Shown here piece after piece: positions 2,683 to 30,661 of a DNA stretch of 30,757 bases; within the stretch, counting starts at the first letter, position 1; each line of letters opens with the position of its first letter. Origin of the DNA: a virus; the UHGV virus genome UHGV-0360189; one strand, given 5' to 3'. The translations under genes were made by a program, and so were the position numbers. The notes under the pieces were generated by a model. That model had not been told where the DNA came from and made no database searches. It saw only the letters and a program-made list of their open reading frames with translations.

Positions 2683-3302
2683 GACTCGAAAGCGTAGCTA
2701 AATTTCATTCGCCAAAAAGCCCGATGATGAGCGACTCACCACGGGCCACGGCTTCTGACTCTCTTTCCGGTACTGATGTGATGGCTGCTATGGGGATGGT
2801 GCAATCACAAGCCGGATTCGGAATGGCTGCATTCTGCGGTAAGTATGAACTCAGCCAGAACGACAAACAAAAGGCTATCAACTATCTGATGCAATTTGCA
2901 CACAAGGTATCGGGGAAATACCGTGGTGTGGCAAAGCTTGAAGGAAATACTAAGGCAAAGGTACTGCAAGTGCTCGCAACATTCGCTTATGCGGATTATT
3001 GCCGTAGTGCCGCGACGCCGGGCGCAAGATGCAGAGATTGCCACGGTACAGGCCGTGCGGTTGATATAGCCAAAACAGAGCAGTGGGGGAGAGTTGTTGA
3101 GAAAGAGTGCGGAAGATGCAAAGGTGTCGGCTATTCAAGAATGCCAGCAAGCGCCGCATATCGCGCTGTAACGATGCTAATCCCAAACCTTACTCAACCC
3201 ACCTGGTCACGCACTGTTAAGCCGCTGTATGACGCTCTGGTGGTGCAATGCCACAAAGAAGAGTCAATCGCAGACAACATTTTGAATGCGGTCACACGTT
3301 AG
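2679..3302 (+). CDS. Q: Late gene antiterminator Q
   Basis: ORF track 2679..3302, 207 aa, [27 protein letters not shown]... essentially lambda Q including the Cys-rich zinc-binding region (CRDCHGTG...CGRCKG). ATGA overlap with ninI. Confidence 0.92.
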
Positions 3303-3344
3303 CAGCATGATTGCCACGGATGGCAACATATTAACGGCATGATA

Positions 3345-3373
3345 TTGACTTTTTGAATAAAGTTGGGTAAATT
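3345..3373 (+). promoter_or_regulatory. Late promoter pR' with overlapping Q-utilisation (qut) region
   Basis: TTGACT at 3345-3350, 17-bp spacer, TAAATT at 3368-3373; the sequence TTGACTTTTTGAATAAAGTTGGGTAAATTTGAC matches the lambda pR' region immediately downstream of Q. Confidence 0.75.
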
Positions 3374-3379
3374 TGACCC

Positions 3380-3573
3380 AACGATGGGTTAATTCGCTCG
3401 TTGTGGTAGTGAGATGAAAAGAGGCGGCGCTTACTACCGATTCCGCCTAGTTGGTCACTTCGACGTATCGTCTGGAACTCCAACCATCGCAGGCTGAGAG
3501 GTCTGCAAAATGCAATCCCGAAACAGTTCGCAGGTAATAGTTAGAGCCTGCATAACGGTTTCGGGATTTTTTA
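3380..3573 (+). ncRNA. 6S late leader transcript (pR' to tR')
   Basis: Interval from the inferred pR' start site to the tR' hairpin plus T-run; length of about 194 nt agrees with the lambda 6S RNA. Ends are inferred, not measured. Confidence 0.5.
3515..3572 (+). terminator. tR' intrinsic terminator (antiterminated by Q)
   Basis: Long imperfect hairpin with outer arms CCCGAAAC (3517-3524) and GTTTCGGG (3558-3565), followed by T-run 3567-3572. Confidence 0.65.
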
Positions 3574-3970
3574 TATCTGTGCAACAGGTAAGAGCATTCT
3601 CCTTTATGGGGCTTGGTTTAAATGCATTGAGTGCTCTTTCCGTTGTGCTGAATTAAGCGAATACCGGAAGCAGAACCGGATCACCAAATGCGTACAGGCG
3701 TCATCGCCGCCCAGCAACAGCACAACCCAAACTGAGCCGTAGCCACTGGCTATCCTGAATTCATCAGTGATAGTTACGCTGCGGCCTTCTACACATGATC
3801 TTCGTGAAAGCGGGTGACAGGAGGTCGCGCTAACAACCTCCTGCCGTTTTGCCCGTGCATATCGGTCACGAACAAATCTGATTACTAAACACAGTAGCCT
3901 GGATTTGTTCTATCAGTAATCGACCTTATTCCTAATTAAATAGAGCAAATCCCCTTATTGGGGGTAAGAC

Positions 3971-4294
3971 ATGAAGATGCCAGAAAAACATGACCTGTTA
4001 GCCGCCATTCTCGCGGCAAAGGAACAAGGCATCGGGGCAATCCTTGCGTTTGCAATGGCGTACCTTCGCGGCAGATATAATGGCGGTGCGTTTACAAAAA
4101 CAGTAATCGACGCAACGATGTGCGCCATTATCGCCTGGTTCATTCGTGACCTTCTCGACTTCGCCGGACTAAGTAGCAATCTCGCTTATATAACGAGCGT
4201 GTTCATCGGCTACATCGGTACTGACTCGATTGGTTCGCTTATCAAACGCTTCGCTGCTAAAAAAGCCGGAGTAGAAGATGGTGGAAATCAATAA
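3971..4294 (+). CDS. S: Holin S (S107 antiholin / S105 holin, dual start)
   Basis: ORF track 3971..4294, 107 aa, [34 protein letters not shown]... matches lambda S; Met1-Lys2-Met3 dual-start motif and three hydrophobic segments. Confidence 0.92.
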
Positions 4295-4754
4295 TCAACG
4301 TAAGGCGTTCCTCGATATGCTGGCGTGGTCAGAGGGAACTGATAACGGACGGCAGAAAACCAGAAATCATGGTTATGACGTCATTGTAGGCGGAGAGCTA
4401 TTCACTGATTACTCCGATCACCCTCGCAAACTTGTCACGCTAAACCCCAAACTCAAATCAACAGCAGCCGGACGTTACCAGCTTCTTTCACGTTGGTGGG
4501 ATGCCTACCGCAAGCAACTTGGCCTGAAAGACTTCTCTCCCAAAAGCCAGGACGCAGTGGCATTGCAGCAGATTAAAGAGCGTGGCGCTTTACCGATGAT
4601 TGATCGCGGTGATATTCGTCAGGCTATCGACCGTTGCAGCAATATCTGGGCTTCACTGCCGGGCGCTGGTTATGGTCAGTTCGAGCATAAGGCTGACAGC
4701 CTGATTGCAAAATTCAAAGAAGCGGGCGGAACGGTCAGAGAGATTGAGGTATGA
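4278..4754 (+). CDS. R: Endolysin R (lytic transglycosylase)
   Basis: ORF track 4278..4754, 158 aa, [39 protein letters not shown]... matches lambda R; overlaps the S 3' end by 17 nt. Confidence 0.92.
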
Positions 4755-17792: not shown

Positions 17793-18208
17793 GTTTTGCC
17801 CTGAAACTGGCGCGTGAGATGGGGCGACCCGACTGGCGCGCCATGCTTGCCGGGATGTCATCCACGGAGTATGCCGACTGGCACCGCTTTTACAGTACCC
17901 ATTATTTTCATGATGTTCTGCTGGATATGCACTTTTCCGGGCTGACGTACACCGTACTCAGCCTGTTTTTCAGCGATCCGGATATGCATCCGCTGGATTT
18001 CAGTCTGCTGAACCGGCGCGAGGCTGACGAAGAGCCTGAAGATGATGTGCTGATGCAGAAAGCGGCAGGGCTTGCCGGAGGCGTCCGCTTTGGCCCGGAC
18101 GGGAATGAAGTTATCCCCGCTTCCCCGGATGTGGCGGACATGACGGAGGATGACGTAATGCTGATGACAGTATCAGAAGGGATCGCAGGAGGAGTCCGGT
18201 ATGGCTGA
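17774..18208 (+). CDS. T: T segment of tail assembly chaperone, expressed as a G-T fusion by programmed -1 ribosomal frameshift
   Basis: ORF track 17774..18208 in the -1 frame relative to G; ..FDGELSFALKLAREMGRPDWRAMLAGMSSTEYADWHRFY... matches lambda gpT; no independent SD or ATG; slippery site G GGA AAG at 17768-17774. Confidence 0.88.
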   Translation: MFDGELSFALKLAREMGRPDWRAMLAGMSSTEYADWHRFYSTHYFHDVLLDMHFSGLTYTVLSLFFSDPDMHPLDFSLLNRREADEEPEDDVLMQKAAGLAGGVRFGPDGNEVIPASPDVADMTEDDVMLMTVSEGIAGGVRYG

Positions 18209-20780
18209 ACCGGTAGGCGATCTGGTCGTTGATTTAAGTCTGGATGCGGCCAGATTTGACGAGCAGATGGCCAGAGTCAGGCGTCATTTTTCCGGTACGG
18301 AAACTGATGCGAAAAAAACAGCGGCAGTCGTTGAACAGTCGCTGAGCCGACAGGCGCTGGCTGCACAGAAAGCGGGGATTTCCGTCGGGCAGTATAAAGC
18401 CGCCATGCGTATGCTGCCTGCACAGTTCACCGACGTGGCCACGCAGCTTGCAGGCGGGCAAAGTCCGTGGCTGATCCTGCTGCAACAGGGTGGTCAGGTT
18501 AAGGACTCCTTCGGCGGGATGATCCCCATGTTCAGGGGGCTTGCCGGTGCGATCACCCTGCCGATGGTGGGGGCCACCTCGCTGGCGGTGGCGACCGGTG
18601 CGCTGGCGTATGCCTGGTATCAGGGCAACTCAACCCTGTCCGATTTCAACAAAACGCTGGTCCTTTCCGGCAATCAGGCGGGACTGACGGCAGATCGTAT
18701 TCTGGCCCTGTCCAGAGCCGGGCAGGCGGCAGGGCTGACGTTTAACCAGACCAGCGAGTCACTGACGGCGCTGGTGAATGCCGGTGTGCGTGGTGGTGAG
18801 CAGTTTGAGGCGATCAGCCAGAGTGTGGCGCGTTTCTCCTCTGCATCCGGCGTGGAGGTGGACAAGGTCGCTGAAGCCTTCGGGAAGCTGACCACAGACC
18901 CGACGTCGGGACTGACAGCGATGGCACGTCAGTTCCATAACGTGACGGCGGAGCAGATTGCGTATGTTGCTCAGTTGCAGCGTTCCGGAGATGAAGCCGG
19001 GGCATTGCAGGCGGCGAACGAGGCCGCAACGAAAGGGTTTGATGACCAGACCCGCCGCCTGAAAGAGAACATGGGCACGCTGGAGACCTGGGCAGACAGG
19101 ACAGCACGGGCATTCAAATCCATGTGGGATTCGGTGCTGGATATTGGTCGCCCGGACACTGCCCAGGGAATGCTGGAGAAAGCAGAAAAGGCTTTTGATG
19201 AGGCGGACAAAAAATGGCAGTGGTATCAGAGCCGAAGCCACCGGCGCGGTAAAACCTCAGCATTTCTTGCCAATCTCCGGGGAGCATGGGAGGACAGAGC
19301 GAATGCGCAACTTGGGCTTTCAGCCGCCACGTTGCAGGCCGATCTTGAAAAGGCCAGAGAGATGGCAGCAAAGGACTGGGCCGAGTCTGAGGCATCACGG
19401 CTGAAATATACCGAAGAGGCGCAGAAGGCTTACGAACGCCTGCAGACGCCGCTGGAGAAATATACCGCCCGTCAGGAAGAACTGAACAAGGCACTGAAAG
19501 ACGGGAAAATCCTGCAGGCAGATTACAACACGCTGATGGCGGCGGCGAAAAAGGATTATGAAGCGACGCTGAAAAAGCCGAAACAGTCCGGCGTGAAGGT
19601 GTCTGCGGGCGATCGTCAGGAAGACAGTGCTCATGCTGCCCTGCTGACGCTTCAGGCAGAACTCCGGACGCTGGAGAAGCATGCCGGAGCAAATGAGAAA
19701 ATCAGCCAGCAGCGCCGGGATTTGTGGAAGGCGGAGAGTCAGTTCGCGGTACTGGAGGAGGCGGCGCAACGTCGCCAGCTGTCTGCACAGGAGAAATCCC
19801 TGCTGGCGCATAAAGATGAGACGCTGGAGTACAAACGCCAGCTGGCTGCACTTGGCGACAAGGTTACGTATCAGGAGCGCCTGAACGCGCTGGCGCAGCA
19901 GGCGGATAAATTCGCACAGCAGCAACGGGCAAAACGGGCCGCCATTGATGCGAAAAGCCGGGGGCTGACTGACCGGCAGGCAGAACGGGAAGCCACGGAA
20001 CAGCGCCTGAAGGAACAGTATGGCGATAATCCGCTGGCGCTGAATAACGTCATGTCAGAGCAGAAAAAGACCTGGGCGGCTGAAGACCAGCTTCGCGGGA
20101 GCTGGATGGCAGGCCTGAAGTCCGGCTGGAGTGAGTGGGAAGAGAGCGCCACGGACAGTATGTCGCAGGTTAAAAGTGCAGCCACGCAGACCTTTGATGG
20201 TATTGCACAGAATATGGCGGCGATGCTGACCGGCAGTGAGCAGAACTGGCGCAGCTTCACCCGTTCCGTGCTGTCCATGATGACAGAAATTCTGCTTAAG
20301 CAGGCAATGGTGGGGATTGTCGGGAGTATCGGCAGCGCCATTGGCGGTGCTGCCAGTGGTGGAGCATCCGCGTCAGGCGGTACAGCCATTCAGGCCGCTG
20401 CGGCGAAATTCCATTTTGCGACCGGGGGATTTACGGGAACCGGCGGCAAATATGAGCCAGCGGGGATTGTTCACCGTGGTGAATTTGTCTTCACGAAGGA
20501 GGCAACCAGCCGGATTGGTGTCGGCAACCTGTACCGCCTGATGCGGGGCTATGCGGAAGGTGGTTATGTGGGCGGTGCCGGAAGTCCGGCGCAGATGCGG
20601 CGGGCTGAAGGCATTAATTTTAATCAGAACAATCACGTGGTGATTCAGAACGACGGTACGAATGGTCTGCCAGGTCCACAGATGATGAAGGCAGTGTATG
20701 ACATGGCCCGCAAGGGTGCCCGTGATGAAATTCAGACACAGATGCGTGATGGTGGCCTGTTCTCCGGAGGTGGACGATGA
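18201..20780 (+). CDS. H: Tail tape measure protein H
   Basis: ORF track 18201..20780, 859 aa, MAEPVGDLVVDLSLDAARFDEQMARVRRHFSGTETDAKK... matches lambda gpH; long alpha-helical/coiled-coil central region and Gly-rich C-terminus. Confidence 0.95.
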   Translation: MAEPVGDLVVDLSLDAARFDEQMARVRRHFSGTETDAKKTAAVVEQSLSRQALAAQKAGISVGQYKAAMRMLPAQFTDVATQLAGGQSPWLILLQQGGQVKDSFGGMIPMFRGLAGAITLPMVGATSLAVATGALAYAWYQGNSTLSDFNKTLVLSGNQAGLTADRILALSRAGQAAGLTFNQTSESLTALVNAGVRGGEQFEAISQSVARFSSASGVEVDKVAEAFGKLTTDPTSGLTAMARQFHNVTAEQIAYVAQLQRSGDEAGALQAANEAATKGFDDQTRRLKENMGTLETWADRTARAFKSMWDSVLDIGRPDTAQGMLEKAEKAFDEADKKWQWYQSRSHRRGKTSAFLANLRGAWEDRANAQLGLSAATLQADLEKAREMAAKDWAESEASRLKYTEEAQKAYERLQTPLEKYTARQEELNKALKDGKILQADYNTLMAAAKKDYEATLKKPKQSGVKVSAGDRQEDSAHAALLTLQAELRTLEKHAGANEKISQQRRDLWKAESQFAVLEEAAQRRQLSAQEKSLLAHKDETLEYKRQLAALGDKVTYQERLNALAQQADKFAQQQRAKRAAIDAKSRGLTDRQAEREATEQRLKEQYGDNPLALNNVMSEQKKTWAAEDQLRGSWMAGLKSGWSEWEESATDSMSQVKSAATQTFDGIAQNMAAMLTGSEQNWRSFTRSVLSMMTEILLKQAMVGIVGSIGSAIGGAASGGASASGGTAIQAAAAKFHFATGGFTGTGGKYEPAGIVHRGEFVFTKEATSRIGVGNLYRLMRGYAEGGYVGGAGSPAQMRRAEGINFNQNNHVVIQNDGTNGLPGPQMMKAVYDMARKGARDEIQTQMRDGGLFSGGGR

Positions 20781-23178: not shown

Positions 23179-26580
<3,402 letters not shown>

Positions 26581-26598
26581 ATTTTATAACCCAGAACG

Positions 26599-26622
26599 GG
26601 CGTCAGAAATGACGCCTTTTTT
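26599..26622 (+). terminator. Intrinsic terminator downstream of J
   Basis: Stem GGCGTC/GACGCC (26599-26604 / 26611-26616), loop AGAAAT, followed by TTTTTT (26617-26622). Confidence 0.6.
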
Positions 26623-26646: not shown

Positions 26647-27246
26647 ATGCGTAAACTTTATGCCGCCATTTTGTCCGCAGCCATTTGTCTGGCCGTATCC
26701 GGTGCGCCTGCATGGGCATCTGAACATCAGTCCACGCTGAGCGCGGGGTATCTTCATGTCTCGACGAACGTTCCCGGCAGCGATGATCTGAACGGGATTA
26801 ACGTGAAATACCGTTATGAGTTTACGGACACACTGGGGATGGTGACGTCTTTCAGCTATGCAGGAGACAAGAATCGCCAGCTTACCCGTTACAGCGATAC
26901 CCGCTGGCATGAAGATTCCGTGCGTAACCGCTGGTTCAGCGTGATGGCGGGGCCGTCTGTGCGCGTGAATGAATGGTTCAGCGCGTATGCGATGGCGGGT
27001 GTGGCTTACAGCCGTGTGTCGACTTTCTCCGGGGATTATCTCCGCGTAACTGACAACAAGGGGAAAAAGCACGATGTGCTGACCGGAAGTGATGACGGTC
27101 GCCACAGCAACACGTCTCTGGCGTGGGGAGCTGGCGTGCAGTTTAACCCGACCGAATCCGTGGCCATTGATATTGCTTATGAAGGCTCCGGCAGTGGTGA
27201 CTGGCGCACTGACGGTTTCATCGTGGGTGTCGGTTATAAATTCTGA
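26647..27246 (+). CDS. lom: Lom outer-membrane protein (Ail/Lom family beta-barrel; moron)
   Basis: ORF track 26647..27246, 199 aa; N-terminal signal peptide ([24 protein letters not shown]), beta-barrel-like alternating pattern, C-terminal GYKF; matches lambda Lom as remembered. Confidence 0.9.
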
Positions 27247-27272: not shown

Positions 27273-27299
27273 AGCCCGCCGGTTCAGGCGGGCTTTTTT
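27273..27299 (+). terminator. Intrinsic terminator downstream of lom
   Basis: Perfect 8-bp stem AGCCCGCC/GGCGGGCT (27273-27280 / 27287-27294), loop GGTTCA, then TTTTT (27295-27299). Confidence 0.7.
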
Positions 27300-27310
27300 G
27301 TGGGGTGAAT

Positions 27311-30300
27311 ATGGCAGTAAAGATTTCAGGTGTACTGAAAGACGGCACAGGAAAACCGGTACAGAACTGCACAATCCAGCTGAAAGCAAAACGTAACAGT
27401 ACCACGGTGGTGGTGAACACGCTGGCATCTGAAAATCCGGATGAAGCCGGGCGTTACAGTATGGACGTTGAGTACGGTCAGTACAGCGTTATTCTGTTGG
27501 TGGAAGGATTCCCGCCGTCACATGCCGGGACCATCACCGTGTATGAAGATTCTCAACCCGGTACGCTGAATGATTTTCTCGGTGCCATGACGGAGGATGA
27601 TGCCCGTCCGGAGGCACTGCGTCGTTTTGAACTGATGGTGGAAGAGGTGGCGCGTAACGCGTCCGTGGTGGCACAGAACACGGCAGCCGCAAAGAAGTCA
27701 GCCAGTGATGCCAGCACATCTGCCAGTGAGGCGGCAACCCGTGCGACTGATGCTGCAGATTCAGCACGTGCAGCCAGCACGTCAGCCGGACAGGCCGCGT
27801 CGTCGGCTCAGTCAGCGTCTTCCAGCGCAGGAACGGCATCAACAAAGGCCAGTGAAGCATCGAAAAGTGCTGCTGCTGCAGAGTCCTCAAAAAGCGCGGC
27901 AGCTACCAGTGCCGCTGCGGCGAAAACGTCAGAAACGAATGCGGCAGCGTCACAACAATCAGCAGCCACCTCTGCATCCACCGCGACCACGAAAGCGTCA
28001 GAAGCTGCCTCCTCAGCCAGGGATGCGTCGGCTTCAAAAGAGGCGGCAAAATCATCAGAAACGAGCGCAGCCTCGAGCGCCAGTAGTTCCGCTTCCTCGG
28101 CAACGGCGGCAGGCAATTCCGCGAAGGCGGCAAAAACGTCCGAGACGAACGCCAGGTCTTCTGAGACGGCAGCGGGACAGAGCGCCTCAGCTGCGGCAGG
28201 CTCAAAAACAGCGGCTGCGTCGTCTGCCAGTGCCGCGTCAACAAGTGCCGGGCAGGCCTCAGCCAGTGCCACCGCCGCCGGAAAATCGGCAGAAAGTGCC
28301 GCATCGTCTGCTTCAACAGCCACAACGAAGGCTGGCGAAGCCACTGAACAGGCCAGCGCAGCAGCGAGGTCAGCTTCCGCAGCGAAGACATCCGAAACGA
28401 ACGCGAAAGCGTCGGAAACCAGCGCAGAATCCTCAAAAACGGCTGCCGCATCGTCAGCCAGTTCGGCGGCGTCATCGGCATCATCGGCGTCTGCTTCAAA
28501 AGATGAGGCGACCAGACAGGCATCAGCAGCGAAAGGCAGCGCCACGACGGCATCCACGAAAGCAACAGAGGCAGCTGGCAGTGCGACGGCGGCAGCACAG
28601 AGCAAAAGTACGGCGGAATCCGCGGCAACGCGCGCCGAGACAGCGGCAAAACGGGCAGAGGATATTGCATCCGCCGTGGCGCTTGAGGATGCGAGCACGA
28701 CGAAAAAGGGGATAGTACAGCTCAGCAGCGCGACCAACAGCACGTCTGAAACGCTGGCGGCAACGCCAAAGGCAGTAAAAGCAGCCTATGACAATGCAGA
28801 GAAACGTCTGCAGAAAGACCAGAACGGCGCTGATATACCCGATAAGGGACGCTTCCTGAACAACATTAACGCGGTCAGTAAAACAGACTTTGCTGATAAG
28901 CGTGGTATGCGTTATGTGCGGGTTAACGCTCCTGCAGGTGCAACATCTGGAAAATATTATCCTGTTGTTGTTATGCGTTCTGCTGGCTCAGTAAGCGAAC
29001 TGGCATCAAGGGTCATTATCACCACGGCAACGCGAACCGCAGGCGATCCGATGAATAACTGCGAGTTTAACGGATTTGTTATGCCTGGTGGCTGGACTGA
29101 CAGGGGGCGTTATGCTTATGGAATGTTCTGGCAATATCAAAACAATGAACGAGCCATCCACTCAATAATGATGAGTAATAAGGGCGATGATTTGCGCTCT
29201 GTGTTCTATGTTGATGGCGCTGCTTTCCCTGTTTTTGCGTTCATCGAAGATGGCCTGTCAATATCCGCACCTGGTGCTGATCTCGTTGTTAATGATACGA
29301 CCTATAAGTTTGGGGCAACAAATCCAGCGACTGAATGTATCGCGGCGGACGTTATCCTTGATTTTAAGAGTGGGCGTGGTTTTTATGAGTCCCATTCGTT
29401 AATCGTTAACGATAACTTGTCGTGCAAAAAACTTTTTGCCACAGACGAAATTGTAGCGCGTGGTGGTAATCAGATTCGAATGATAGGTGGGGAGTATGGG
29501 GCATTATGGCGTAATGATGGCGCTAAAACTTACCTGCTGCTTACCAATCAAGGTGATGTTTATGGTGGATGGAATACATTAAGACCGTTTGCTATTGATA
29601 ACGCAACCGGCGAACTGGTTATTGGAACCAAGCTGTCTGCAAGTCTGAACGGTAACGCATTGACAGCAACAAAGCTGCAAACGCCAAGACGGGTTTCTGG
29701 TGTTGAGTTTGATGGTTCCAAAGATATTACTTTAACCGCCGCGCATGTGGCTGCTTTTGCCAGAAGGGCAACGGATACGTATGCCGATGCGGATGGGGGC
29801 GTTCCATGGAATGCCGAATCAGGCGCTTACAATGTCACCCGCTCTGGCGACAGCTATATTCTGGTTAACTTCTATACCGGAGTCGGAAGTTGCCGGACCC
29901 TGCAGATGAAGGCACATTACAGAAATGGAGGTCTGTTCTACCGTTCCTCAAGAGATGGCTATGGTTTTGAGGAAGACTGGGCAGAAGTTTATACCTCGAA
30001 AAATCTTCCACCAGAAAGCTACCCAGTCGGCGCACCAATCCCGTGGCCATCAGATACCGTTCCGTCTGGTTATGCCCTGATGCAGGGGCAGACTTTTGAC
30101 AAATCTGCTTACCCGAAACTTGCAGTTGCTTATCCGTCAGGCGTGATCCCTGATATGCGTGGCTGGACGATTAAGGGCAAGCCCGCCAGTGGTCGTGCCG
30201 TATTGTCTCAGGAACAGGACGGCATTAAATCGCACACCCACAGCGCCAGCGCATCCAGTACGGATTTGGGGACGAAAACCACATCGTCGTTTGATTACGG

Positions 30301-30661
30301 CACTAAATCCACGAATAACACTGGTGCGCATACCCATAGTGTTAGCGGTACGGCTGCTTCAGCCGGTGCACATACCCATTCGATGACATTTGTTTCAGGT
30401 GGTTCCAGTGGTGCTCCGGGAAGTGGATCACCTGATTATTCTAAATACAGTGTTAACACTTCTTCTGCAGGCGCTCATACGCACTCTGTATCGGGTACTG
30501 CTGCAAGCGCAGGTGCACACGCACATACTGTCGGTATTGGTGCTCATACGCACTCCGTTGCGATTGGTTCACATGGACATACCATCACCGTTAACGCTGC
30601 TGGTAACGCGGAAAATACCGTCAAAAACATCGCATTTAACTATATTGTGAGGCTTGCATAA
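27311..30661 (+). CDS. stf: Side tail fibre protein Stf (intact, long form)
   Basis: ORF track 27305..30661; the lambda-like start is ATG 27311 ([35 protein letters not shown]...). Long Ala/Ser/Thr-rich repeat region followed by a C-terminal domain with repeated GAHTHS / HxH motifs and ending [11 protein letters not shown], as in T4 gp37-like fibre tips. Confidence 0.9.

Follow-up and report, generated by a model that had tools for sequence, protein, structure and literature searches.

A proximal rod in tail-fibre proteins of E. coli prophages was described by Ghosh et al. (PLoS One 2012, PMC3368898), who showed that the so-called PCoil of EPclA and EPclB, the collagen-like tail-fibre proteins of E. 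coli O157 prophages, is a trimeric α-helical rod, EPclA PfN-PCoil being trimeric by SEC-MALLS. The PCoil follows the PfN domain (PF08400), is built of Ala/Ser-rich A-x-x-A/S-x-x-S heptads and differs in length between proteins by multiples of seven. More recently, Wang et al. (Sci Adv 2025, PMC12617516) assigned residues 102-393 of Ur-lambda gpStf to a proximal trimeric coiled coil by cryo-EM/ET, with gpStfN defined as residues 1-91. The trimeric coiled-coil PCoil, its heptad pattern and its length steps of 7n were thus already known, and a lambda homologue had been modelled, before the locus reported here was analysed. A further case is LtfA of the T5-like phage DT57C, which forms a three-helix coiled coil where it leaves the tail collar (PDB 8hqz).

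The window analysed, 30,757 nt of the virus genome UHGV-0360189, carries an StfR-type side tail fibre gene, stf, on the forward strand at 27311..30661. The open reading frame list begins it at a GTG at 27305, whereas the ATG at 27311 agrees with the MAVKIS start in lambda; an intrinsic-terminator-like hairpin lies on the forward strand 3' of lom (27273..27294), followed by a T-run that ends about 11 nt upstream of that ATG. The 1116-aa frame is intact, and its identity follows from Pfam and from DNA identity of 96.5% to K-12 stfR, 98.1% to that of E. coli EC19 and 86.5% to lambda stf over the shared parts. The initial annotation had stated that laboratory lambda, by contrast, carries a frameshifted stf, and this is borne out by the lambda record (orf-401/orf-314) and by PMC12617516.

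The N-terminal collar domain (gpStfN/PfN core, aa 1-94; 27311..27592, forward strand), assigned to docking of the fibre on the tail, matches the 94-aa 'Tail fiber protein' of PDB 9e7m chain Ta (E 6e-52) and falls within a phage_tail_N domain (PF08400) at aa 1-134 (E 1e-71). This Pfam domain directly precedes an Ala/Ser/Thr-rich tract that starts at aa 121. Beyond the tract lie a conserved junction motif recognised in alignments (aa 467-490; 28709..28780, forward strand), a Gp34_trimer domain (aa 663-762), a Collar domain (aa 907-954) and an HxH fibre repeat; aa 441-521 match fibre protein S of phage Mu (PDB 5yvq). The receptor-binding tip (aa 902-1116; 30014..30658, forward strand), with its GAHxHS repeats, is a homologue of the T4 gp37 tip (PDB 2xgf, E 1.5e-88; Pfam Collar and Phage_fiber).

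The tract is very probably the proximal trimeric coiled-coil shaft of a lambda-type side tail fibre, that is, the PCoil domain of gpStf. Ur-lambda gpStf is a direct homologue, sharing the N-terminal collar domain, the xxSAxxA tract residue for residue and the C-terminal junction motif; the present allele differs from it by 15 additional heptads (aa 304-408, 105 aa, ~15.6 nm if helical) and by a different, longer distal half with Gp34_trimer (1116 vs 774 aa overall). In StfR of the E. coli K-12 Rac prophage the architecture is unchanged and the tract likewise counts 47 heptads; the differences are scattered substitutions and 4 aa outside the tract (1120 vs 1116 aa). With the PCoil of EPclA and EPclB the tract has in common its position after PF08400, an Ala/Ser-dominated composition with nearly no Leu, Ile or Val, the A-x-x-A/S-x-x-S heptads, length steps that are mostly 7n and an α-helix, the last in silico here and by CD in the homologue. 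The EPclA PCoil is shorter, at ~110 aa by its fragment boundaries (PfN 1-140, PfN-PCoil 1-250; PMC3368898) against ~330 aa here, contains more Glu and continues into a collagen triple helix, whereas a T4-like distal half follows in this fibre.

A PDB sequence search with the tract alone returned one marginal match, DT57C LtfA residues 33-153 (E 0.021), in which an SA..A flavour is shared, and no solved structure spanning the tract; the full-length Stf query weakly matched the N-terminal part of T7 gp17 (E 0.0047). Both similarities are marginal and may reflect shared composition, the coiled regions in these two proteins being much shorter, and T5-like phages attach to the collar through a separate protein, LtfC.

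Heptad register and predicted fold of the tract

As had been noted from the sequence, aa 121-452 of Stf (nt 27671-28666) are rich in Ala, Ser and Thr, which together account for 75% of the 332 residues (A125, S86, T39, K22, E20, Q10, G10, R8, D6, N5, I1). Val, Leu, Met, Phe, Trp, Tyr, Cys, Pro and His are absent, and the sole large hydrophobic residue is the one Ile at the C-terminal edge. The recurring units pointed out earlier are likewise present, KTSETNA three times (aa 205, 275 and 359), ASSA ten times and SASA five times, and all three KTSETNA copies share one heptad register. What the initial annotation took for loose low complexity is instead one strictly phased heptad array, which it overlooked. 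Forty-seven xxSAxxA heptads (aa 121-449; 27671..28657, forward strand) follow one another with no phase break, with Ala at position 7 in 46/47 (98%), Ser at position 3 in 37/47 (79%) and Ala at position 4 in 33/47 (70%). The Fourier power of the Ala indicator reached 42.8 at a period of 3.5 and 18.0 at 7.0, whereas none of 200 shuffles exceeded 10.6, so that the pattern lies far beyond chance.

The same register extends beyond the Ala/Ser array on both sides. On the N-terminal side, three hydrophobic heptads (aa 100-120; 27608..27670, forward strand) were seen when the register was printed out, the first AF2 helix beginning at about aa 98, and on the C-terminal side a single heptad, EDIASAV (aa 450-456; 28658..28678, forward strand), was found, the Viterbi register continuing to aa 455. 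By analogy with the homologues, three Stf chains would associate into a parallel, in-register α-helical coiled coil with a small-residue core of Ser 3, Ala 4 and Ala 7, and the two hydrophobic caps would probably nucleate and clamp it. Under standard a/d assignment, either position 3 or position 4 may act as the core partner of position 7.

An Ala/Ser core is atypical among coiled coils. Small Ala cores are found in parallel trimers of the alanine-zipper type, such as the Ala-zipper region of Braun lipoprotein Lpp-56. Ala zippers are short segments among Leu/Ile/Val heptads; the core of small residues in Stf, in contrast, runs over about 47 heptads.

Sequences of such extreme composition, three-quarters Ala, Ser and Thr and nearly devoid of large hydrophobics, are often flagged as disordered, and the tract could on that ground be read as a flexible tether, in the form of a disordered or extended linker that may also be a target of glycosylation. 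We regard this as very improbable. A linker would have no reason to keep a seven-residue phase through 47 repeats, nor to conserve positions 3, 4 and 7 selectively and accept mainly indels of 7n residues. The single-sequence AF2 monomer is essentially all helix over the tract, with helices at model residues 4-160, 169-291 and 301-411 and block-mean pLDDT inside them mostly 74-89 (whole-model mean pLDDT 69.9, pTM 0.27). In homologues, CD and SEC-MALLS show the corresponding region to be a helical trimer that melts cooperatively near 50 °C (PMC3368898), and a straight proximal fibre is visible in Ur-lambda tomograms (PMC12617516). The AF2 helix doubles back at two low-confidence breaks to give a three-segment bundle; this fold-back is probably an artefact, and structural matches to such a monomer would say nothing about a trimeric rod.

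Length classes and stability of the tract

The best 120 homologous-protein matches were skewed towards relatives of the same length, and samples picked by the N-domain alone were used instead, with the junction motif at aa 467-490 as the C-terminal anchor for measuring tract length. Conservation follows the register. Among 53 distinct alleles of the same length, 13%, 9% and 17% of the columns at positions 3, 4 and 7 are variable, against 32-45% at positions 1, 2, 5 and 6. Both anchors were present in 32 cluster representatives, and in 25 of these the distance between them differs from that in this allele by 0, -105, -112, -203, -217 or -224 aa, all multiples of seven. The other 7/32 distances are not multiples of seven, six of them being a multiple of seven minus one, and one allele (L043) has a +4 insertion that shifts the heptad frame; strict phase is therefore preferred rather than absolute. 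At ~330 aa, the tract belongs to the longest class among 150 cluster representatives.

Lambda Stf is collinear with and highly similar to this Stf, apart from a single clean gap of 105 aa. The corresponding 15-heptad block (aa 304-408, 315 nt; 28220..28534, forward strand), defined by alignment, is present in this allele and in K-12 StfR and absent from lambda. A recent internal duplication was considered as its origin and rejected, local alignment of the block to the remainder of the tract scoring 17.5 against 15.1 ± 2.4 in register-preserving codon shuffles, with no significant DNA similarity between the two. One copy of the block under a CDS annotated gpJ (H81) proved to lie in a decayed prophage remnant built of pseudogenes. 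The suggestion that tract length might differ among related prophages and set the length of the fibre holds, since it does differ between relatives (lambda at -105 aa, and the other classes) and a rod must set fibre length. These changes between homologues are rare and mostly involve whole heptads.

The initial annotation also held the tract to be prone to expansion and contraction, and in its strongest form this would make it a hypermutable, contingency-type repeat in which slipped-strand mispairing often alters the number of copies, so that fibre length varies rapidly. The variable length among homologues and the recurrence of short units such as KTSETNA would fit, as would a DNA self-identity of 0.445 at shifts of 21-nt multiples, against 0.367 at other multiples of 3. 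At third codon positions, in contrast, 7-codon periodicity is absent (0.275 vs 0.264), and the seven-residue periodicity is thus imposed at the level of the protein. Head-to-tail DNA repeats of high identity were sought by TRF and by an exact-repeat search; TRF yielded just two trivial arrays of 22-26 nt, none exceeding 26 nt, and exact direct repeats reach 12 nt at most, which is chance level (mean 13.2 in synonymous-codon shuffles). The 15-heptad block resembles the other parts of the tract no more than register-preserving shuffles do. Copy number was also compared among near-identical relatives, and in 55/62 prophages with a 98-100% identical N-domain the tract is exactly equal in length, the other classes lying at -105 and -112 aa, yet 28% of the tract columns differ in sequence among relatives of that same length. 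Hypermutability is accordingly considered highly unlikely, and with no tandem DNA repeats, chance-level exact repeats and one predominant length the claimed proneness is not upheld. Long-read confirmation of the repeat count, as had been proposed, is needless, because there is nothing for an assembler to collapse. In the coiled-coil shaft, evolutionary change in length would instead come about by rare recombinational insertion or deletion, surviving only if the heptad phase is kept.

Open reading frames in the other frames

The strand bias remarked on earlier is evident in an AT skew of +0.32 to +0.45 over the tract, where T makes up 11.5% of the bases and 0% of those at codon position 2. Three long frames overlap the tract, namely an Arg/Gln/Pro-rich +1 frame of 336 aa (27705..28715, forward strand), an antisense Ala-rich frame of 311 aa (27808..28743, reverse strand) that is the counterpart of the annotated lambda 'orf206b', and an antisense Pro/Leu-rich frame of 255 aa (27903..28670, reverse strand). 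The first two had been called spurious in the initial annotation, and codon shuffles agree in identifying them as compositional artefacts. The +1 frame stayed open through 331 codons in 300/300 codon shuffles, being free of stops because codon position 2 is never T. The open run of the -1 frame (285 codons) lies inside the shuffle range (mean 240), and 1-3 stops interrupt this frame in other alleles.

The -2 frame behaves differently, its open run of 253 codons exceeding all 300 codon shuffles (mean 101). The sole route to a stop in this frame is an NCT|A junction, and such junctions are at least 4-fold depleted in every phage gene tested, including J, distal stf and a long ORF (18201-20780) that is probably the tape-measure gene H; the excess length of the frame is thus attributable to phage-wide avoidance of NCT|A. 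Other alleles carry 0-4 stops in it.

The sheer length of these frames (255-336 aa), the annotation of orf206b in the lambda reference record and the endurance of the -2 frame beyond every shuffle (n=300) might be taken to mean that one of them is a real overlapping gene constraining the tract. The chance of this is judged to be exceedingly small. The +1 frame is incapable of a stop, the -1 frame runs as shuffles do, the -2 frame is explained by NCT|A avoidance, and both antisense frames contain stops in other alleles, so that in the shuffles and the allele comparison taken together no frame was found that is open beyond compositional expectation and also open in homologues. Synonymous divergence per codon is moreover higher in the tract (0.110) than in the N-domain (0.058), which argues that the tract is under no extra constraint at silent sites.

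Predicted rod length and its practical meaning

As a coiled-coil shaft, the tract would hold the receptor-binding distal half at a distance from the tail collar, and the number of heptads would set the length of the rod at ~1.04 nm each. The 47 Ala/Ser heptads of this allele, or ~51 heptads with the caps, would span roughly 49-53 nm (~49 nm for the 47 alone), and the excess over lambda would correspond to ~15.6 nm for 15 heptads.

A speculative and rather doubtful extension is that the heptad number is a selected setting of 'reach'. Two main rod classes, of 47 and 31-32 heptads (~49 and ~33 nm), would be maintained together in E. coli prophages, matched either to how deep the surface layer of the host is, be it O-antigen or capsule, or to how long the central J fibre is, and would change in steps of seven only, so that collar and distal half stay in their azimuthal relation. 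Quantisation and co-circulation are both seen, with 5507 occurrences of the 15-heptad block (in 3692/5426 genomes) and 15104 of the stf N-domain across E. coli genomes. Each length class is combined with several different distal halves, which speaks against a tight coupling.

With the PCoil in print since 2012 and a model of the lambda homologue since 2025, the present findings carry little weight as a discovery, and their value lies in annotation and engineering. The tract deserves the label of a coiled-coil shaft and should not be masked as low complexity, and the open reading frames in other frames, lambda orf206b included, should not be called genes. For the construction of Stf chimeras, or for changes of fibre length, insertions and deletions should be made in multiples of 7 residues.

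The side tail fibre gene and its predicted shaft domain

The window closes on its 3′ side with the tail-fibre region of a lambdoid prophage, where J (23182-26580) and lom (26647-27246) precede stf, running from an ATG at 27311 to a stop at 30661 and followed by the start of tfa. The gene is intact, being a single open reading frame of 1116 residues, as the initial annotation stated; the frameshift that it noted in laboratory lambda is likewise borne out by the lambda reference record (NC_001416), where stf is divided into orf-401 and orf-314, and by Wang et al. (Sci Adv 2025; PMC12617516), who link the loss of side fibres in laboratory lambda to this frameshift. Two strong intrinsic-terminator-like hairpins with T-runs (26598-26617 and 27273-27294, + strand) bracket lom. 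The T-run of the latter stops about 11 nt 5′ of the stf ATG, so that late stf expression presumably depends on Q-modified (antiterminated) polymerase reading through it.

Pfam assigns to Stf a “prophage tail fibre N-terminal” domain (residues 1-134), a T4 gp34-type trimerisation domain (663-762), a Collar domain (907-954), and an HxH fibre repeat. PDB matches cover both ends of the protein: a chain of 9e7m, a 94-residue “Tail fiber protein”, at residues 1-94, and the T4 gp37 tip (2xgf, E 1.5e-88) over the C-terminal 215 residues. Recurring GAHTHS/GAHAHT motifs in this tip (window 30323-30558; direct repeats D9 and D11) are the His-x-His repeats of a T4 gp37-type needle domain. It is an StfR-type gene, with DNA identities of 96.5% to K-12 stfR and 98.1% to a prophage of E. 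coli EC19; of 5426 complete E. coli genomes, 5131 contain matches to parts of the gene.

The Ala/Ser/Thr-rich tract at residues 121-452 (27671-28666) is a previously described domain of this very common prophage gene, already known and consistent with the textbook account. Ghosh et al. (PLoS One 2012; PMC3368898) investigated the tail-fibre proteins of O157 prophages, which have a MAVKIS N-terminus and the PfN domain in common with the window Stf, and gave the name “PCoil” to the low-complexity Ala/Ser region after PfN, with a heptad A-x-x-A/S-x-x-S and length differences in multiples of seven (PMC3368898). In the Ur-lambda side fibre resolved by Wang et al., gpStf residues 1-91 form the collar domain and residues 92-101 a linker; residues 102-393 are a proximal trimeric coiled coil, after which come a hinge and then the distal domain (PMC12617516). 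The LtfA fibre of DT57C, a T5-like phage, emerges from the collar as a coiled coil of three helices, and its chain (PDB 8hqz, residues 33-153) is the sole PDB sequence match to the tract, albeit a weak one. By analogy with the experiments on the O157 and Ur-lambda homologues, the window tract would be helical and trimeric.

Heptad register and alternative reading frames

The initial annotation placed and described the tract correctly, including its composition, strand bias, and long additional ORFs, of which three are present. Residues 121-452 comprise A125, S86, T39, K22, E20, Q10, G10, R8, D6, N5, and a single Ile, with V, L, M, F, W, Y, C, P, and H all at zero by residue count; KTSETNA occurs three times (residues 205, 275, and 359), AT skew reaches +0.45, and T makes up 11.5% of the bases. 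Arranged in rows of seven, the tract resolves into 47 uninterrupted heptads with the pattern xxSAxxA: Ala occupies position 7 in 46 and position 4 in 33, Ser occupies position 3 in 37, and the non-Ala residues at position 4 are mostly Lys or Glu. The Ala indicator gave Fourier peaks at periods 3.5 (power 42.8) and 7.0 (power 18.0), the highest power in 200 shuffles being 10.6. The register extends into hydrophobic heptads on both sides (14 residues and ARNASVV before, EDIASAV after), whose hydrophobic residues occupy positions 3/4 and 7, such that a single phase is held over about 51 heptads; a register-aware Viterbi parse returned the tract as one continuous segment. A single-sequence monomer AF2 model of residues 95-520 was nearly all helix, folding back at two low-confidence turns, which we take to be a monomer artefact of the prediction. 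Comparable difficulty with AF3 on full-length Ur-lambda gpStf was reported by its authors (PMC12617516).

Among 53 distinct IMG/VR prophage alleles of identical tract length, selected by the N-domain alone, variable columns amounted to 13%, 9%, and 17% at positions 3, 4, and 7, and 32-45% at positions 1, 2, 5, and 6. Low variability at the former three is, on these alignments, the signature of a buried helix stripe.

The possibility of overlapping genes in the other frames was rejected. T is zero at codon position 2 throughout the tract, making stop codons impossible in the +1 frame, which stayed open over all 331 codons in 300 of 300 codon shuffles, and the open length of the Ala-rich antisense frame fell within the shuffle range. 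The Pro/Leu-rich antisense frame was open for longer than in any shuffle; its sole source of stops is an NCT codon followed by an A-initial codon, a junction found once in the tract against 8.1 expected (4- to 8-fold depleted). The same junction was observed against expectation 4 versus 15.9 times in distal stf (28667-30658), 1 versus 4.5 in J (23182-26577), and 0 versus 5.1 in an 859-residue ORF (18201-20780). Furthermore, the alternative frames contain stops in other alleles, and synonymous divergence per codon is higher in the tract (0.110) than in the N-domain (0.058), hence no extra constraint acts on its silent sites. All three ORFs are artefacts, in agreement with the initial description of such ORFs as spurious. 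Each phage gene examined showed strong depletion of CTA across a codon boundary, and T|A junctions of all kinds numbered 4 in the tract against 15.1 expected (hypergeometric P = 6e-5). The lambda record (NC_001416) labels the Ala-rich antisense ORF in its own Stf coiled-coil tract “orf206b hypothetical protein” (798-1418 of the extracted locus, minus strand), which by the present analysis is a compositional artefact.

Length variation and stability of the tract

Comparison among related prophages was made on the distance between two flanking anchor motifs. Across 62 close relatives with both anchors and with N-domains 98-100% identical, this distance was 356 residues in 55, 251 in three (minus 15 heptads), 244 in one (minus 16 heptads), 360 in one, and 400 in two; the last keep the tract extent unchanged, so their 44 additional residues lie after it. 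The sole frame break among these relatives is a stutter-like discontinuity in IMG/VR UViG_2850808358_000003, the relative with 360 residues, where a four-residue insertion near residue 208 shifts the heptad frame through the remaining tract. For 32 representatives of 50%-identity clusters with both anchors present, 25 differed from the window by 0, -105, -112, -203, -217, or -224 residues, all multiples of seven, six by a multiple of seven minus one, and the remaining one by -208, coinciding with a register break. Lambda Stf is collinear with the window protein save for one clean gap of 105 residues (window residues 304-408). In the PF08400 family at large, some members lack the tract and others have up to about 340 residues of it, almost always in one register; the window is in the longest class observed among family representatives.

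Both length classes are common: the stf N-domain DNA has 15104 sites spread over 4806 E. coli genomes, and the 315-nt block lacking a counterpart in lambda (28220-28534) has 5507 sites spread over 3692 of the 5426 complete genomes, with at most seven copies in any one; long and short shaft classes thus co-circulate, often in one genome. The best match to this block (NZ_CP032986 locus, 2882-4582) is covered by a pseudogene labelled “gpJ TipJ family”, which is part of a decayed prophage remnant adjoining appY; the label seems to have been given in error to a J-stf remnant.

The initial annotation regarded the tract as a low-complexity repeat prone to expansion and contraction that may set fibre length. 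The differing length classes uphold its variability, and the role in setting fibre length also stands for a rod-like tract; the mechanism of an unstable DNA repeat, which predicts repeated DNA, was wrong. TRF detected nothing in the tract beyond two trivial arrays (22-26 nt), the longest exact direct repeat was 12 nt against a mean of 13.2 in synonymous-codon shuffles, and the 315-nt block resembled the remainder of the tract no better than register-preserving shuffles did. Self-identity of the DNA was 0.445 at multiples of 21 nt versus 0.367 at other multiples of three, with no seven-codon periodicity at third codon positions (0.275 versus 0.264). The lack of periodicity there and of long DNA repeats indicates that the repeat is kept by protein-level selection rather than by recent duplication. 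Judged from the sequences compared, tract length is polymorphic in the population, stable within lineages, and changes by whole heptads; together with the position-specific constraint, this length variation is evidence that the heptad periodicity is functional.

A proposed coiled-coil rod

Across a set of 80 IMG/VR prophage loci, the 47-heptad shaft is linked to many distinct distal halves, with 25 total lengths from 652 to 1176 residues and several C-termini. Some loci (e.g. L053) carry a far shorter heptad tract ending near residue 291, which may be a junction inside the tract. This suggests that the shaft and its flanks serve as recombination joints for fibre mosaicism.

In the proposed mechanism, three Stf chains would attach to the tail collar via their N-domains and, from about residue 100, zip into a coiled coil, probably parallel, around a core formed by the small-residue stripe S3/A4/A7, with the hydrophobic caps (residues 100-120 and 450-456) probably nucleating it. 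The rise in a coiled coil is about 0.1485 nm per residue, from which we calculate that the 47 Ala/Ser heptads would be about 49 nm long, and about 53 nm with the caps included. Such a rod, 15.6 nm longer in the window than the estimated lambda rod, would keep both the hinge and the receptor-binding, gp37-like tip at a distance from the tail.
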